Source: Deinococcales bacterium
GTDB lineage: Bacteria > Deinococcota > Deinococci > Deinococcales > JAAFIG01
Assembly: GCA_043778225.1 (NCBI GenBank)
Contig: JAYWGM010000028.1
Location: 32,001-96,000, forward strand
Direction of reading: 5' to 3'
Length of the DNA: 64,000 nucleotides
Part shown: piece by piece, positions 11,950 through 18,849 of the stretch
Layout of the letters: each line of letters begins with the position of its first letter
Position numbering within the stretch: position 1 is the stretch's first letter
The notes under the pieces: generated by a model
Database searches by the model: none
The model's input: only the letters and a program-made list of their open reading frames with translations
What the model was told of the DNA's origin: nothing
Made by a program: the position numbers and the translations under genes

Positions 11950-13464
11950 TTATTTGCGGATTCGCACCAAGTCGTTGAGGACTCCATCCAGACCATTGGT
12001 GACTGTTAGCGTTTGCACTTTTTCGATGATTCGCTCGAGTGCCTCGAGTTCTTTGAGGCGCAATGCCACAGGGTTGTCTTCCATCACTTTGGCAGTATTT
12101 AACAAATTTCGCGTGGCAGCCGTTTCTTCACGGCGACGAATCAAGTTGGCTTGGGCAGATTTTTCGGCTTCGACCACTTTGCTTAAAATGGTTTTCATTT
12201 CGCCTGGCAAAATAATGTCTTTGATACCGACATTCTCGAGTTGCAAACCCAGATTCTCGAGTTTAGAACGCACAATTGCTGCAATATCCAAATCCAGTGC
12301 GGTTTTATCCTCGAGTAAGCTGTCTAAGGTGCGTGTGCCGATGACACCACGCAAAGCAAATTGCAATTCTTTATACAAAAATGCCACAAAATCGGTCAGT
12401 TGGGCAAAGGCTTTGAGTGGCTCGAGAACACGGTAGCCAGCCGCGAGGTTAATCCGCAGCGCAACTTTATCCTTGGTCAGAATTTCTTGCCCGCTGACTT
12501 CGAGGGTTTGTAAACGCAAATCGGTGGCAGCCACCCGAACACTGCGACCTGTTTTCCAAAAGGTGTGCAGTCCGACTTCTAAGGCAGACTCGAGTTTGCC
12601 ATCCAAAAACAGCGCACCTTGGTGATATTCTGGCACAAGCGCATACTCAATCAGTGGCTCAAGCGGCGTGCCTTTGGCAGCTTTGGCAAGCGCAAGCGGC
12701 ACGTTCAGGTTAGCGGTCTCGAGCATTTCAACTCGAGTAGCCGCATCGAGCATCAAAAGCGTATTGCTGTTGGGCGCAAAAACCGCCACAATTGCCGCAC
12801 TGCGGCGAACGATGGCAATTTCAGTATCGCCCAATTCAAGTCGGGTCAATTGCACCAACCACGCTGGATTGGCTGCCAAAATCGCTTCGGCAAGCGGCTT
12901 TGGCAGTGGCATCGCCACACCTTGTAGCGCCACTACAATTTCCTCGAGTCCACGCCAGTAAATACGGCGCTGCCCACTTTGCACCAAGTCTTGTACCACT
13001 CCGCCGCGAGTCACGACTGCAAATTGCAAGGCAGCAGGGGCAACTTCGACAAAAAATTTATTCAGCACAACTTTATTTCGCACTTGTGCCAAACGCATTC
13101 CAGCCTCGATCATCAAGCCATGTTCGATTTTGAATAGCTCAATTTGCATGGCAGCAAAACCTTTCCAGTACAAAACTTGGCTGTTTGGCGCAACCACCTC
13201 AAGAATTTCATCGCCTCGAGAAACCAGTGCCACTTCAAGTGCGCCCGTTTGCACCACCGCAAAGTGCTTGTTGACCACATCGGAACGCCGCTCGAGTAAA
13301 AAATTGGTCAGTTCGTGTTCAAATCGAGTCTCGAGGGCAAAACGCTGGACAGCATAACCTGTGCCATAAACTGTATTCGCACCAGCCTCGAGAATCCGAA
13401 CAAAACGCCCATGACGGGTCAGAATACCTTTTTCCGTGTCTTTAATCGCAAAATTTTGAATCAT
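11950..13464 (-). CDS. slipin family (SPFH/band 7) protein with an extended N-terminal repeat region
   Basis: DLRLQTLEVSGQEILTKDKVALRIN, IKDIILPGEMK and RREETAATR...MEDNP.ALRLKELE. Start moved to ATG 13464 (RBS AGAGG) because the upstream extension overlaps a non-coding element. Confidence 0.9.
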   Translation of the reverse strand: MIQNFAIKDTEKGILTRHGRFVRILEAGANTVYGTGYAVQRFALETRFEHELTNFLLERRSDVVNKHFAVVQTGALEVALVSRGDEILEVVAPNSQVLYWKGFAAMQIELFKIEHGLMIEAGMRLAQVRNKVVLNKFFVEVAPAALQFAVVTRGGVVQDLVQSGQRRIYWRGLEEIVVALQGVAMPLPKPLAEAILAANPAWLVQLTRLELGDTEIAIVRRSAAIVAVFAPNSNTLLMLDAATRVEMLETANLNVPLALAKAAKGTPLEPLIEYALVPEYHQGALFLDGKLESALEVGLHTFWKTGRSVRVAATDLRLQTLEVSGQEILTKDKVALRINLAAGYRVLEPLKAFAQLTDFVAFLYKELQFALRGVIGTRTLDSLLEDKTALDLDIAAIVRSKLENLGLQLENVGIKDIILPGEMKTILSKVVEAEKSAQANLIRRREETAATRNLLNTAKVMEDNPVALRLKELEALERIIEKVQTLTVTNGLDGVLNDLVRIRK

Positions 13465-13483
13465 ATAAAACCTCTGGGGTGAA

Positions 13484-13559
13484 AGCGACCATGCCCGATA
13501 GCGACCCAGCCCGTCAGGTGCATCTTTAGGGTCAAGAAGGTGCGTGCTTATGGTCAAGA
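13484..13559 (-). repeat. two nested copies of a 38-nt structured element
   Basis: Outer TCTTGACCATAAGCACGCACCT|ATCGGGCATGGTCGCT is interrupted by inner TCTTGACCCTAAAGATGCACCTGACGGGCTGGGTCGCT (13500-13537). Confidence 0.85.
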
Positions 13560-13625
13560 AAGGGTTAAAAGGTTAAAAGGTTAAAAGTTAAGGGCAGAAC
13601 AGTTACTTTTTCCCTTTTTCTTCTT
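13559..13625. repeat. short tandem 8-mer repeat (AAAAGGTT)n with a degenerate complementary arm
   Basis: gggttaaaaggttaaaaggttaaaagttaa followed by a pyrimidine-rich tract; related to 50293-50369. Confidence 0.6.
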
Positions 13626-13850
13626 GCCAACCTTATCTCGAGTATTTCGAGTTTCGCATGAGCTTTTGGGCGCGTGTTCACTGGCTTGAAGGCGGCTCGA
13701 GCCGACGTTCACTCGAGGGTGGCGGTTCAGGTGGGCGAATCGGTGCTTTGTGCCGATAGGAGACTCGAGGCTTTTGGCTGTACACCCTTAAAGGGCAAGC
13801 AACTCGAGACAAAGCTGGTGGTGCTTGGGTCAACGATTTTGCTTATCGTT

Positions 13851-13960
13851 TGGTGATTTATGGGAGTCGAACCCATTACCGTCAGTTTATAAGCGACCCT
13901 GCCCGCGAGGTGCGTCTTAGGGTCAAGAAGACTGATGCTCTAACCAGTTGAGCTAAAACC
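13851..13960 (-). ncRNA. tRNA-like module A (Ile-UAU-like once a 37-nt anticodon-loop insertion is removed)
   Basis: GGTTT TA GCTC AACTGGTTA GAGC A TCAGT CT [37 nt] TAT AA ACTGA CGGTA ATGGG TTCGACT CCCAT AAATC A CCA; acceptor stem only 5 bp. Confidence 0.8.
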
Positions 13961-13961
13961 T

Positions 13962-14066
13962 TGGTAAAAGATGCAGGATTTGAACCTGCTTGCCCGTTTG
14001 GGCGCTCGAACAGTCGTTTGTGCGACTGCAACCCGAGTGCGTTTATCCAGTATCCGCCAATCTTTT
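13962..14066 (-). ncRNA. tRNA-like module B (class II, Leu-like body, hairpin in place of the anticodon loop)
   Basis: AAAAGAT/ATCTTTT 7-bp acceptor plus ACCA; D arm GCG..TGG..CGC; CTCG/CGAG stem enclosing CAGTCG-CACAAA-CGACTG; variable arm GCCC-AAAC-GGGC; T arm GCAGG-TTCAAAT-CCTGC. Confidence 0.8.
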
Positions 14067-14067
14067 G

Positions 14068-14150
14068 TTTGATGAAAGGAATCGAACCTTTGACCTCTCG
14101 AGTGGTCAGTCAAATGACCAGCCAAGCGCTCTACCCCTGAGCCACATCAA
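14068..14150 (-). ncRNA. tRNA-like module C (class I body, hairpin in place of the anticodon loop)
   Basis: TTGATG/CATCAA acceptor; D arm GCTC-AGGGGTA-GAGC; CTTG/CGAG stem enclosing TGGTCA-TTTGAC-TGACCA; variable loop AGGTC; T arm AAAGG-TTCGATT-CCTTT; no encoded CCA. Confidence 0.8.
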
Positions 14151-14360
14151 TTTATCTTTGTGCGATATGCAAGGTAAGCAGGGCTTATTTGCATCAGCGA
14201 GGCTATGCAAACCTCTGACCACGGCACGTGATGCAAAAAGTGTACTCGAGAAGTCAAAAAAGTCCATGACTGATTTGGCTTACGCCAATGTGCCAATCGT
14301 CACGTTTAGCAAGCTGGTTTTTTCACGTCTGACAGAGGTAGTATACCGTATACTCGAGCC

Positions 14361-17111
14361 ATGCTTGAACGATTTTTTAGCTTGTTGGCTTGCAGCATAG
14401 GCTTGGTGGCTTGTCAGGACAAACCAATTTTAATTGTCAATCCGCCAGACAACAGCAGCCCAGCCTTACTTTGGTCAAATGCTGCCACATGGGGCGGGAG
14501 TGTACCAAGCGACAACAGCAGTGTGGTCATTCCAGACGGCAAACGCATTGTTTTAGATGTCAATGCCAATGTCAAAAACATTACCGTACTTGGAACGCTC
14601 GAGTTTAAGGACACCAACCTCAATCTTCAAACCGATTATATTGCTGTCCATGGTGCAATGCGCTTAGGCAGTGCGATTAACCCATTTGCCTCCAGAGCCA
14701 CCATTACCTTAAAAGGCAGCAATACCGAAGACATCATGAAGATGGGGTCTCGAGGTATTTTGGTGATGGGCGGCGAATTGTCGGTCTACGGCACAGCCCC
14801 CAAAGTTATCTGGACTAAATTAGCCGACCACAGCGCGGCTGGAGCTTTAAGTCTGAGTTTACTCGAGAATACAGCTTGGAAAACTGGCGACCAGATTGTG
14901 ATTGCACCGACCGATTTTTACAACGATGGAAATTTCCAAAAATCCCCAGAGACCGAAATGCTCGAGGTACAAAGTGCCAACGGCTCGAGTATCGGCTTAA
15001 AAAATGCTTTAAGTGGGGCGCGTTGGGGTAAATTGCAGTATGCCACCGAAAGCGGCATGAGTTTGAGTCAAGGCAGTATTACGCTGCCAAGTACATCGGC
15101 TCGAGACACGGGTGGCACTACCATTCCAACAGTGCTGGATGAACGGGCAGAAGTTGGCAATGTCAGCCGCAACATTGTGATAGAAGCTGCCGACGACAAC
15201 CTCTGGAAAGAACAAGGATTTGGCGCTCAGGTCATGATTATGGGCGAAACTGCCAAGACCCATCTCGAGGGCATCGAACTACGGCGGGTTGGGCAAGCTG
15301 GCAAATTTGGGCGTTATCCGGTGCATTTTCATAATTTAAGTTACGACAGCACGGGCAAGGAATTAGCCGATGCAAACGCCACCCTCAAAAACTCGAGCAT
15401 TTGGAATTCAAGTCAACGTTGTGTGGTGATTCATGGCTCGAACGGTGTTAAAGTGCAAAATAATATTTGCTACAACATCAAAGGTCATGCAATTTTTCTC
15501 GAGGATGCAGTCGAGCGGCGCAACTTAATCGAAAATAATCTGGTATTGCGGGTACGCGAGCCTAAAAAAGCCCAAGCACTTTTGAAGCACGAAATTGGCG
15601 AAGCCTTTGGCGGTACGAGTTCTGGCTTTTGGATTGTTAATCCTGACAACACGCTGCGTGGCAATGTCGCCGCCGATGTTGTTGGGCATGGGTACTGGTT
15701 GGCTTTTCCAAAGACCACGCTTGGAGTCAACAACAACGTCAAGCTCAATCCGTACGCTGACCAAGGAAAAATCATAGGCGCTCGCCCTGAAAGAATGCCG
15801 TTTGGGATTTTTGAAAACAACGTGGCGCACAGCATCCAAGACAATGGTGTGTTTATAGATGCCGCTCCAACCGATGCTCGAGACGCAAGTGGCAACCAAA
15901 TTGGCGAAACCGAAGGCGCAAAGTATGTCCCCATGCAGGGAGGTAAAGACTGGGATTACGATTTTAGCAAGTGGGAACGCTTTACTTTGGCTAGAGTCAC
16001 GACCTATAAAACAGGTTCGTACTGGGGCGGTGGTGGCGGCATCTGGAATCGTAACAGTTACCCCAATTTTCTCGAGTGGGTTTCGGCAGACCATCAGGGC
16101 GGTTGGTTCGCTGGGGCTGGCGACGATGGCTTAATTGCCCGTAGCCTGATGGTTGGCACAAGCCTCAATATTGGTGTGGCTCGAGCCAGCACCCAGCCTT
16201 TGGCAGCCTTAGCGAGTTATCACAGCACTTTTGACATGACCCAAAACATTATCCTCGAGTTTCCATTTGCCCAAGGCACGGAAAACAACCCAAGTGGTGT
16301 ATTTATGACTGCCGATTATTACATCACACCAGTAGACAAAGGCTTAAAACGCAATCCAGACAACAAGTTAGTCAATGCTCACCCCGGACGACGTGTACAG
16401 CCTTTTACAACCGAAAACTGGGCTTTGGCTGGCGCACTTTGGGATTACAACGGCTATTGGGGGAAGGCAGGCAATTATTGGGTTTATGACCAAGCCTTCT
16501 TTACATCTGGCACAAGCTGCACCCAAGTTGCACCAGTCGGCAAAAACGGCGCAAGTTGTGTTGGTCCATACTATGGCATTGGCGATTTTGTAACCAATTT
16601 TGACACCGACCGCTACGGTTTTAAGCACCCCATAGAAGCTACTCGAGTTGACTCGAACGGCACAACTTTGGACACTTGGAGTGTGGGCGACGGCAATACT
16701 GCCCCAAAATTGGGCAATATGCGCCATTTTGCAGCCGTCAAGAATGGGCGCTTTATGCTGCGTTTTCCTAAGCGCTCGGGTTCTGGGTACGAAATTCCAC
16801 AGCGTTTTGAATCCACCGTGGATAACTTTCTGAGTGCCAGCGACGAAACTTTATTGGCGGTACAGTTTGATGGCACAAAAAACCCAAGCATTAGCCTCGA
16901 GAACGGCACAGAGACTCGCGCAATCAACTCGAGTGGGATAAATCTGGCAGCCGTAACAGCCGACTCGAGTGGCAAAACCTTTTTCTTTGACCGTGGCAAT
17001 AACTTACTTTGGCTGAAATTAAAAGGTGGGCTGACCAAAAACCCCAATTGGAATCAAGACCCGAAATCCAACGACCAGTTGTATCAATCTATGCGGCTCG
17101 AGATTAAGTGA
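14361..17111 (+). CDS. G8 domain / parallel beta-helix lipoprotein (CEMIP/TMEM2-like architecture)
   Basis: Lipobox LVAC; WSNAATWGG G8 start; RAEVGNVSRNIVI, GQAGKFGRYPVHFH, RCVVIHGS, GHAIFLED and GFWIVNPDN motifs. Confidence 0.85.
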   Translation: MLERFFSLLACSIGLVACQDKPILIVNPPDNSSPALLWSNAATWGGSVPSDNSSVVIPDGKRIVLDVNANVKNITVLGTLEFKDTNLNLQTDYIAVHGAMRLGSAINPFASRATITLKGSNTEDIMKMGSRGILVMGGELSVYGTAPKVIWTKLADHSAAGALSLSLLENTAWKTGDQIVIAPTDFYNDGNFQKSPETEMLEVQSANGSSIGLKNALSGARWGKLQYATESGMSLSQGSITLPSTSARDTGGTTIPTVLDERAEVGNVSRNIVIEAADDNLWKEQGFGAQVMIMGETAKTHLEGIELRRVGQAGKFGRYPVHFHNLSYDSTGKELADANATLKNSSIWNSSQRCVVIHGSNGVKVQNNICYNIKGHAIFLEDAVERRNLIENNLVLRVREPKKAQALLKHEIGEAFGGTSSGFWIVNPDNTLRGNVAADVVGHGYWLAFPKTTLGVNNNVKLNPYADQGKIIGARPERMPFGIFENNVAHSIQDNGVFIDAAPTDARDASGNQIGETEGAKYVPMQGGKDWDYDFSKWERFTLARVTTYKTGSYWGGGGGIWNRNSYPNFLEWVSADHQGGWFAGAGDDGLIARSLMVGTSLNIGVARASTQPLAALASYHSTFDMTQNIILEFPFAQGTENNPSGVFMTADYYITPVDKGLKRNPDNKLVNAHPGRRVQPFTTENWALAGALWDYNGYWGKAGNYWVYDQAFFTSGTSCTQVAPVGKNGASCVGPYYGIGDFVTNFDTDRYGFKHPIEATRVDSNGTTLDTWSVGDGNTAPKLGNMRHFAAVKNGRFMLRFPKRSGSGYEIPQRFESTVDNFLSASDETLLAVQFDGTKNPSISLENGTETRAINSSGINLAAVTADSSGKTFFFDRGNNLLWLKLKGGLTKNPNWNQDPKSNDQLYQSMRLEIK

Positions 17112-17112
17112 T

Positions 17113-18849
17113 TTAGGGATAGACATTGGCATTGGTGGCTGCGCCCATACTGCCCATTTGGGCGGGTGGGCAAACACCGCCAGGAGCGCCAAAGTTGCCC
17201 AGTAACCCAGCTATTAGCGTGTTGTTGCTGGCAGAAAAAACCATATGGCCAGAGGCTAATGAATAAACCCCGCCACCAATCGCATCGCCACCGTTACCGC
17301 CATTGGTGGCTTGAACAAGACATTGGGTTGGTGAGGAAACCGAATTAAAACCAGTCCCACCATTGCCGCCCCAAGCCAAATTATCTTTGATTTCTGAAGC
17401 AATGATTTTTAAGGCACTGCTCGAGGTTGCCGCACTATAAATGCCAGCCCCATAGGCATGACCGCCATTTTGACCCGCCACACTCAGCGATCCATTCGCC
17501 CCGTTGCTCCCTGTAGCCGTGTTATTGCTGATTTGGCTGTACTCAATACTCAAAGCCCCATTGGTGGTGCTAAAAATTCCGCCGCCTCGAGCCACTAAAA
17601 GCGCAGCAGGCAGACCAAGAACCGCAGTTGTGCCTTTGACTTGGTTTGAAGTTATTTTCATCCCAATCAAGCGCGTGGTGGTATCAACTAAAATTCCCGC
17701 CCCACCAAAGTTAGTGCCATTGTGGGTGAGTCTGCCATCTTTAATTGTAAAACCACCCAGCACCACAGTTTTTCCAGTGCCTGTGGTCTCGAGAACCCGA
17801 GAAGCAAAACTTCCAGACAGTGACACATTCGCCCCGCCATACAACCCAATGGACTTATTGATCACCAGTGGGCTACCAACCCCGATGGTGGTATCAAAAC
17901 AAATGCCATCCCCTTGGGTCGCATTGGCAACAGCATTGGTCAGTGCGTTCACACCCGACACAATTATATTCACGGCTGGCACGGTTAAATGGGTGCTGAC
18001 GGCATCTGAACCTATTCCGCCCAATTTACCCGCCACCCTAAGGTCATGAATAAATTTGAGGTTCGTAGTGGTATCACCACACGCCTGTCCACCCAGCATC
18101 GTGACTTTACGAGTGCCGCTCGGCACAGCACTTAAACCCGCCACTGTCCCCGCAATCTGTTCCTCGAGACTCTGGACAAGTTCGTTGACCCCGCCTTCGG
18201 AAAATAAAAAAGTCAGGCTAAAACCATATGTACCAGAAGTTTGGTTTGGCACACTCAGGGAAAGGGTGACTGTGGCTGTTTCGTTTGGGGCAATGGTTCT
18301 TGGATTGCTGTCCAAGTTCGTATCGCCAACCCGTTGCTGCATTAAATAACCAAATCCAAGCGGGTATTCGCCAACCCCAAGGGCAGCCCCAGCTTCGGTG
18401 GCTCGAGTATTGATTTCACTTTGATTAAAAAGTTGTAAATCGGCGGCATTTGAATCCACTGTACTCGCATTGCAATCCATACCGTGACTCGACACGATGG
18501 CTCGAGGGTTAGGCGTAGTTGCACCACCAAAATTAACAATCGCTTTGAGGGCTGTACCATCGGCATTACCAGATTTGTGATAGGCATGAAGCAGCAGATT
18601 ATTGAGGGTTGAGTTGGTGTTGTTGGTGAACCGAAAACTGCGTCGTAAATAGCGCAAGCCCTTGGTCATGTCATCGCAGACTGCCACGGCTGCCAGTGGC
18701 ACAAAACTCAAGGCGGTATCGGGCAGGACTGCCGCTTGGGTCAAGACATTGGACATTGGTAACTCGAGTGCGCCAAGTGTTTGCGGACTCGGTTGTGGGT
18801 TTTGCTGACAAGCCAAGAGACCAACAAAAAGAACAATCAACCGCTTCAT
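17113..18849 (-). CDS. lipoprotein with a C-terminal Gly/Asn-rich beta-helix-like region
   Basis: Lipobox LLAC; repeated GGG(I/V)(Y/F)S and N.A.GG.GG motifs. Confidence 0.75.
   Translation of the reverse strand: MKRLIVLFVGLLACQQNPQPSPQTLGALELPMSNVLTQAAVLPDTALSFVPLAAVAVCDDMTKGLRYLRRSFRFTNNTNSTLNNLLLHAYHKSGNADGTALKAIVNFGGATTPNPRAIVSSHGMDCNASTVDSNAADLQLFNQSEINTRATEAGAALGVGEYPLGFGYLMQQRVGDTNLDSNPRTIAPNETATVTLSLSVPNQTSGTYGFSLTFLFSEGGVNELVQSLEEQIAGTVAGLSAVPSGTRKVTMLGGQACGDTTTNLKFIHDLRVAGKLGGIGSDAVSTHLTVPAVNIIVSGVNALTNAVANATQGDGICFDTTIGVGSPLVINKSIGLYGGANVSLSGSFASRVLETTGTGKTVVLGGFTIKDGRLTHNGTNFGGAGILVDTTTRLIGMKITSNQVKGTTAVLGLPAALLVARGGGIFSTTNGALSIEYSQISNNTATGSNGANGSLSVAGQNGGHAYGAGIYSAATSSSALKIIASEIKDNLAWGGNGGTGFNSVSSPTQCLVQATNGGNGGDAIGGGVYSLASGHMVFSASNNTLIAGLLGNFGAPGGVCPPAQMGSMGAATNANVYP

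Follow-up and report, generated by a model that had tools for sequence, protein, structure and literature searches.

Non-decoding tRNA-like units before slipin genes in several bacterial phyla, and the anticodon hairpins of one Deinococcales array

Three tRNA-shaped units that cannot decode were found upstream of a slipin gene in the window, the 64,000-nt stretch of a Deinococcales contig that was analysed. Evidence from other genomes supports such units as tRNA mimics that do not decode, are conserved and are linked with slipin and RNA-repair biology. The feature is wider than this array and consists of units with free anticodons and broken outer acceptor pairs before slipin. The hairpins that sit in the three anticodon loops of the window are quirks of this one genome. 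Our preferred explanation, with a probability of roughly 0.5, is that the array RNA is a stress-induced, non-decoding tRNA-mimic partner of the soluble slipin in a translation-stress and RNA-repair response.

Results

Anatomy of the array

The three units lie on the minus strand, which is also the strand of slipin, and all have GG in the D loop and TTCRA in the T loop. Unit C (14068..14150) has a 6-bp acceptor and a 20-nt anticodon loop with a 5-bp hairpin at 14119-14104. Unit B (13962..14066) has a class II (Leu/Ser-type) body, a 7-bp acceptor, ACCA and a 23-nt loop with a hairpin. Unit A (13851..13960), the slipin-proximal one, has a 5-bp acceptor, ACCA and a 44-nt anticodon loop. A sequence-only reading of this DNA had described three minus-strand cloverleafs with these coordinates and acceptor lengths, ACCA on B and A, a hairpin inside each anticodon loop and a position upstream of slipin on the same strand, and all of this was reproduced. 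Its anatomy needed correction for unit B, which forms 3 pairs in the D stem and carries the long variable arm of class II tRNAs. The array of three units stood as well, but it is the middle of a longer conserved region.

The Rfam tRNA model scored C at 44.6 and A at 39.9 bits (gathering 29) and did not report unit B in the window scan. Folding energy singled out the cloverleaf of unit B (z -3.95) and was not significant on its own for C and A (z about -1.3). ARAGORN, from which pseudogene or undetermined calls had been expected, called only C by default and all three units when introns were allowed; at a low threshold it returned only noise. No full Rfam family covers the array. A canonical 7-bp acceptor with NCCA was present in unit B only, the acceptors of C and A being 6 and 5 bp, and none of the window units has a canonical 7-nt anticodon loop with a conserved anticodon. 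A plasmid search gave generic tRNA matches only.

A conserved 5' domain

The units are preceded by a 77-nt structured domain at 14158..14234 (minus strand) with a three-way junction, a T-loop-like hairpin and a bulged helix. The coordinates of the sequence-only reading held for the units but missed this domain, which lies outside them. An upstream motif was found at most 130 nt before the units in 66/122 cases, compared to 14/325 background segments. The alignment of the domain comprises 40 sequences, left from 62 after thinning at 90%, and spans Cyanobacteria, Proteobacteria and Deinococcota. The domain covaries, with both-side changes in 8/13 pairs of two helices and 96.5% of cells paired. 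Pairing this high was seen in 0/500 shuffles, which ignore kinship, and slid controls gave 31-56%. The three-way junction also fits the alignment, and a fold of the window's 615 nt reproduces it. One CUG of the domain has two conserved, mutually exclusive pairing partners.

A covariance model of the domain (R1) matched 14158-14234 at 41 bits, the sole strong match in the genome, and gave 75 and 43 matches in 91 and 80 sources, the training sequences among them matching by construction. When 116 candidates were scored in each of 41 Deinococcales genomes, 14 had the domain, one copy apiece, and these were precisely the ones with a true slipin ortholog. Three of the Deinococcales copies are on contigs other than that of slipin, and three-unit arrays follow them there. 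The domain is present in 107/142 loci with enough upstream DNA, of which 105/107 also carry units (the presence list was compiled by hand, and L119, at 18 bits, was left out). It was always on the same strand as slipin and 5' of it. It was also split from RtcR in distribution, being found in 107/120 loci without RtcR and in 0/22 RtcR-adjacent loci, and a search of two whole RtcR-locus genomes did not find it. No Rfam match was obtained at E values up to 10 with the domain from the window and from L022. A likeness to HDV-like or hammerhead ribozymes, judged by eye against their consensus, was dropped, and no such match appeared in Rfam. The literature searched, which leaves many journals uncovered, yielded no description of the 5' domain and no experimentally tested b7a-tRNA.

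In another possible explanation, the region would be a cis-acting leader. It would take the place of the RtcR protein sensor, detecting damage to tRNAs or to translation and setting slipin expression accordingly, with cleavage or processing of the units switching the 5' domain or freeing the slipin message. The split from RtcR loci, the alternative partners of the CUG and the fixed place 5' of slipin all point in this direction. However, the RtcR loci come from few lineages (enterobacteria, Comamonadaceae) and are thus not 22 independent exclusions, the three-way junction uses most of the pairs at once, and a search for a terminator where the leader ends found none. A protein repressor, TrcR, already binds the slipin-locus promoter in Anabaena, according to the available parts of PMC10272220. 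We regard such a leader as possible, although rather improbable.

Units before slipin in other genomes

Conservation upstream of other slipin genes had been named as a check on the array, and it was observed in several phyla: our parser found units in 118/144 loci from genomes, metagenomes and relatives, 26/170 having been excluded for too little upstream DNA. These loci are kin (many are from Nostocales) and were picked by similarity to the window slipin. Because the parser requires paired D, T and inner acceptor stems, counts of those features are partly by construction, as is the conservation of D and T positions near 2 bits. With ARAGORN, same-strand tRNA-like genes were found within 2.5 kb of slipin in 65/74 genome loci with at least 900 nt upstream, and Rfam found tRNA-like units in 11/12 slipin loci tested. 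An abutting pair of units is present in 53 of the 144 loci.

Among 111 distinct last, slipin-proximal units, a full 7-bp acceptor was kept in 9/111, pair 1:72 in 30/111 and NCCA in 28/111. Dispersed ARAGORN tRNAs served as a control; 27/42 were parsed and, with unit C set aside, pair 1:72 and NCCA were present in 26/26. A 7-nt loop was found in 95/111 of the last units, with 28 anticodons among these 95 and U36 in 74/95 (CAU, GAU, UGU, UAU). The window is the only locus with a long insert in the slipin-proximal unit. Penultimate units have a full acceptor in 44/51, and their loops range from 4 to 23 nt, being shorter than 7 nt in 20 and longer in 5.

The surroundings of the units vary among lineages. 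In many proteobacterial loci (L011, L034, L039, L048, L062, L067, L076), the slipin RNA closes a long array of tRNAs, an HNH gene is often near, and a conserved TTGCCACATCC box precedes the 5' domain. In Cyanobacteria (L006, L010, L012, L018, L028), a third, more degenerate unit often follows the pair, and a TrcR-like box lies near the start. Several Nostocales loci (L013, L025, L036, L053 and L060) have a duplicated RNA or one that is 1.3-2.6 kb away from slipin, and in some a reverse-transcriptase remnant separates the RNA and slipin.

Anticodon hairpins in orthologous arrays

Fourteen orthologous arrays were read by eye: that of the window, six from the genus (L086-L091) and seven from the family (L092-L094, L108, L219, L223, L224). 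A hairpin-bearing anticodon loop was found in C in 3/14, in B in 2/14 and in A in 1/14, and all three occur together only in the window. The C hairpin is shared with L086, where it has a compensatory change, and with L089, where it is shortened, and is absent from the 11 other family arrays. The B hairpin is shared with L091 only, while L086, L087, L088 and L089 have plain 7-nt loops (GAA or CAA). In the six genus orthologs, unit A has plain 7-nt loops with five anticodons (UCU twice, CGU, UGU, UAG, UGA), and ACCA is present on unit A in 1/7 genus arrays. The remaining family loops are plain or short, and among the B units some have degenerated or carry one arm twice; L090 and L224 contain degenerate units. 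No other copy of the B hairpin was found in the genome, and the C hairpin has one other site at one mismatch. The C hairpin of L086 resembles a tandem junction of the mobile repeat described below in 5/15 fuzzy matches, compared to 0-11 for shuffled queries.

It had been argued that one position altered three times, with every stem paired, speaks against random decay. The units are indeed conserved mimics rather than products of random decay, but a purposeful triple change is unsupported because the hairpin occurs in C in three, in B in two and in A in one of the 14 arrays and the hairpin of A is a mobile repeat. The triple hairpin is, in itself, of little importance. Two alleles of the unit C anticodon arm are interleaved on the slipin tree, several forks of which are weak: L088 and L089 are sisters (99/97) yet have different C arms, suggesting that the arms were exchanged or repeatedly remodelled.

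This interleaving would suit an arms race, in which the units are decoys for anticodon nucleases, released under stress or phage attack, and loop variation follows from the contest. The 7-nt loops and U36 of most last units are consistent with this, and a sponge role has been proposed for operonic tRNAs in the available parts of PMC8421152. On the other hand, 20/51 penultimate loops are shorter than 7 nt and the window loops of 20-44 nt are poor mimics of a nuclease target, and a decoy needs neither the conserved 5' and 3' domains nor the tie to slipin. We consider released decoys unlikely.

The view that the units are decaying tRNA pseudogenes at an old integration site is largely refuted. 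It would account for the random anticodons, the mobile insertion in A and the degenerate units of L090 and L224. However, order and position before slipin are kept in several phyla, compensatory changes are found in the stems and in the 5' domain, and no integrase was found among the flanking proteins scanned.

Origin of the insert in unit A

The insert in unit A (13891..13927, minus strand) is 37 nt long and belongs to a mobile hairpin repeat that is dispersed and self-nesting; a short target duplication accompanies it. The hairpin described earlier in this loop is present, but the loop was interrupted by insertion rather than remodelled. The repeat has 65 BLAST and 147 nhmmer matches on 57 contigs of the genome, compared to 0 in a shuffled genome. 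Copies are 35-39 nt long and often sit within other hairpin repeats. They are mostly intergenic, with 13/147 deep in long open frames, which cover 72% of the genome. Two nested copies lie at 13483..13561 (minus strand), in the variable spacer before slipin. Exact-pattern copies number 10-53 per genome in 5/5 genus genomes searched. A search of metagenome contigs for an exact 28-nt pattern found nothing, and a protein scan of metagenome contigs found no same-genus locus.

The insert position is a 37-nt gap in all six genus orthologs of unit A and also in RNA-library contigs of relatives, and taking the 37 nt out of unit A leaves an ordinary 7-nt loop. One might read from this restored loop, from the ARAGORN calls of the inserts as introns and from insert-less contigs in RNA libraries that each hairpin is a small intron whose removal by an endonuclease and RtcB yields a functional tRNA. 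This is very improbable given that the insert-less form is the DNA of relatives, that one RNA-library contig keeps the insert, that the insert is a DNA repeat with 147 copies and that acceptors and anticodons are unconserved.

REP and Nostoc SDR elements are very small mobile repeats. Insert A resembles them as a short, self-nesting and mostly intergenic hairpin repeat and differs in that its sequence is family-specific and that it landed in a tRNA-like anticodon loop.

Promoter boxes, 3' region and RNA-library contigs

A candidate -10 box, TACACT, at 14239..14244 (minus strand) is invariant in 7/7 genus arrays, and transcription would start near 14232. Upstream of it, a conserved box, TAMGCC..CATG, at 14265..14282 (minus strand) may be a regulator or promoter element, as it recurs in 7/7 genus arrays at a fixed spacing to the -10 box. 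No sigma-70 two-box promoter was found at the array. In relatives, RNA-library contigs stop some 41 and 55 nt past 14186, a weak hint on the start.

Past the last unit, a conserved non-coding region at 13620..13850 (minus strand) has a short hairpin, an RCASYAC motif and further blocks, all conserved in the genus. The motif was found 10-60 nt past the last unit in 50/124 loci, compared to 76/2480 shuffles.

Three RNA libraries, each from a different study, contain contigs of relatives over 13853-14187, although contigs can prove neither transcription nor splicing. One 454-nt contig (depth 85.8) of a relative runs from the 5' domain through unit A. In a fourth run, only the mobile repeat was covered. 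In one library, some contigs have insert A and others lack it, but the strains are mixed and the short form also exists as DNA. The slipin and upstream coding starts were not covered by the RNA-library contigs; because the relatives diverge there, this missing cover is not evidence.

The leader of the tRNA-array/Ro60 operon on contig C19 (G000:C19:14466-14527, minus strand; also L207) resembles the slipin-array promoter in boxes and spacing, a likeness that is statistically weak and in which the CATG may be a start codon. With the promoter pattern widened by eye, only the slipin array and the C19 operon matched in the genome, but shuffles gave about 4. The slipin-array box was also found in the leader of the G006 array, two other matches in relatives precede unrelated genes, and the box was not found before rtcB. 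A promoter shared by the slipin array and the C19 operon is thus only a hint.

Slipin and its neighbours

The slipin gene (11950..13464, minus strand) encodes 504 aa with tandem SPFH1-like beta repeats, an SPFH/Band-7 core (Pfam Band_7, E 2.8e-26) and a long C-terminal helix. In the AlphaFold2 model (pLDDT 88.8), stomatin is the best fold match and MVP the next. The N-terminal repeats had no clear Foldseek match; they compare to SPFH1 domains at Z 5.4-6.3 and to MVP R1-R7 at Z 3.5 (rmsd 5.7, 81 aligned). The array had been proposed to lead into an SPFH membrane effector, which does not agree with a slipin that is predicted to be soluble: no membrane segment is predicted, and the highest 19-residue hydropathy is 1.48. 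The nearest slipin among named genomes is that of a Deinococcales MAG, at 81% identity.

The neighbours of slipin in the window are G8-domain and MarR genes. Divergently upstream, at 14361-18849, are a G8/CEMIP beta-helix protein and a 578-aa protein without a Pfam match; some relatives lack this neighbour.

RNA-repair and translation-stress context

As the sequence-only reading had stated, the window has no rtcB or Ro gene; in this genome rtcB is on contig C80 and Ro60 on contig C19. Ro60, the only TROVE match in the genome, sits behind a long tRNA array. Co-occurrence with rtcB, rtcR and Ro60 had been suggested as a check; among 168 slipin loci, rtcB is next to slipin in 33, RtcR in 22 and TROVE in 0 (with one query). 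Other neighbours among the 168 loci were RlaP (19) and an HNH gene (20). Neither in the window nor in 99/107 loci with the 5' domain is rtcB adjacent. In 16/22 RtcR loci, slipin is present yet no unit was found by the parser, so that slipin may be able to do without the RNA.

In Anabaena, slipin alr0740 and the upstream alr0739 are 42- and 72-fold up without the repressor TrcR, and both are derepressed together with rtcB in the trcR mutant and under chloramphenicol, as given in the available parts of PMC10272220. Further context is found in the accessible sections of PMC8421152, PMC7790460 and PMC13607799.

Several other elements were seen in the genome of the window. Between the long tRNA array and Ro60 are two RNAs with a tRNA body whose anticodon arm has a bulged stem like that of Y RNAs (G000:C19:9212-9477; L084, L189), and RNAs like them precede Ro60 in G001, G006 and G007 (L207-L209). 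RtcB is encoded at G000:C80:47009-49219 (L081-L083) in a 947-aa open frame with a gapped Pfam match (possibly an intein) and additional sequence at the N-terminus. At G000:C72:54989-55134, a tRNA is directly followed by a tRNA-like element whose anticodon arm holds a long insert.

Discussion

In the explanation we prefer, one transcript would run from the TACACT box and consist of about 600 nt of structured RNA followed by slipin. Within the RNA, the three-way-junction domain would come first, then the three tRNA-like units and then the 3' domain. The units would be stand-alone b7a-tRNAs, read by the shape of the D/T elbow and not by the anticodon; the anticodon loop would therefore drift, swap between relatives and tolerate a mobile insertion. 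The available parts of PMC4201824 name a 7-bp acceptor as a major determinant for RNase P. Units with a full acceptor, such as B here, would probably be excised by RNase P and tRNA 3' processing, and the last unit, with its outer acceptor broken, probably remains attached to the 3' domain. When translation and tRNAs are damaged, this RNA, shaped like tRNA, may serve a soluble slipin oligomer as partner or scaffold, and RNA and slipin would act alongside RtcB, Ro60 and a spare tRNA array encoded elsewhere in the genome. The anatomy, the pattern of conservation, the link to slipin and the origin of insert A are shown by the results above, while binding to slipin and induction by stress are, like the promoter, the single transcript and the processing, inferred steps of this model.

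A bolder version is that the region is an undescribed class of large ncRNA of about 600 nt, with a three-way-junction head and exchangeable modules, which works in a vault-like RNA-repair particle with a slipin cage or senses tRNA damage instead of RtcR. We hold this to be improbable.

What was gained is a set of boundaries for the system, a covariance model of a 5' domain that Rfam lacks and a clean split from RtcR-controlled loci. The natural variants show that the anticodon loop is dispensable. The system behind the array is a predicted partner of bacterial RNA repair, and a role for slipin and b7a-tRNA is directly testable in Anabaena, where the locus is induced by translation stress. If true, an SPFH cage that is soluble and has a tRNA-shaped RNA of its own would also be relevant to how the vault arose.

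Comparison with known systems

The closest known RNA is b7a-tRNA, a tRNA-like RNA predicted beside Band-7 genes in RtcB neighbourhoods and unvalidated as of 2018, according to the accessible text of bioRxiv 10.1101/312249, which cites Burroughs and Aravind 2016. Rfam returned no such family, and that text shows the class to be already predicted. As in its description there, the window has a tRNA-like ncRNA directly beside a Band-7/SPFH gene on the same strand. In contrast to that description, rtcB is not adjacent, and three tandem units lie in a longer RNA with a 5' domain and a 3' region, the comparison being to the citing text only. Since the RNA and Band-7 features agree and the rtcB adjacency does not, we would file the window array as a stand-alone variant of b7a-tRNA.

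Kinship to Y RNAs, which the sequence-only reading had raised, was not upheld. The motif GNCGAAN0-1G has 0 matches in 13601-14240 (1 in the C19 control region), and Ro60, expected within about 4 kb of a Y RNA, is on another contig. The YrlA model (Rfam RF02553), named as a check, gave 21.7 bits versus 69; the match comes from the B/A junction, and tandem tRNAs elsewhere in the genome behave likewise. The idea of a permuted YrlA fold spanning B and A was dropped on this score and on the missing Ro60 motif. In the available parts of PMC4201824, YrlA/Yrn Y RNAs are, like the units, tRNA mimics that keep D and T arms without decoding and occur in an RNA-repair context, but the window units have the normal tRNA order and are not permuted, with no Ro60 motif or nearby Ro60. 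The Y-like RNAs of this genome are those on contig C19, apart from the slipin array.

The TrcR regulon of Anabaena (the trn L-array, rtcB and alr0739-alr0740) is similar in having slipin away from rtcB and tied to translation stress, and in the window genome, too, rtcB and an L-type tRNA array are encoded at other sites. In contrast to the window, the accessible parts of PMC10272220 and PMC8421152 describe no tRNA-like RNA before slipin.

Finally, the slipin resembles the eukaryotic vault (MVP with vault RNA) as a soluble protein with beta repeats, an SPFH domain and a long helix, with an ncRNA nearby. Its predicted structure has the SPFH shoulder followed by a long helix, and the comparison to MVP gave a Foldseek E of 5.5e-12 and a VIA Z of 10.5. 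Nevertheless, slipin is closer to stomatin, its N-terminal repeats fit SPFH1 over MVP, and a cage and RNA binding are hypothetical for slipin.
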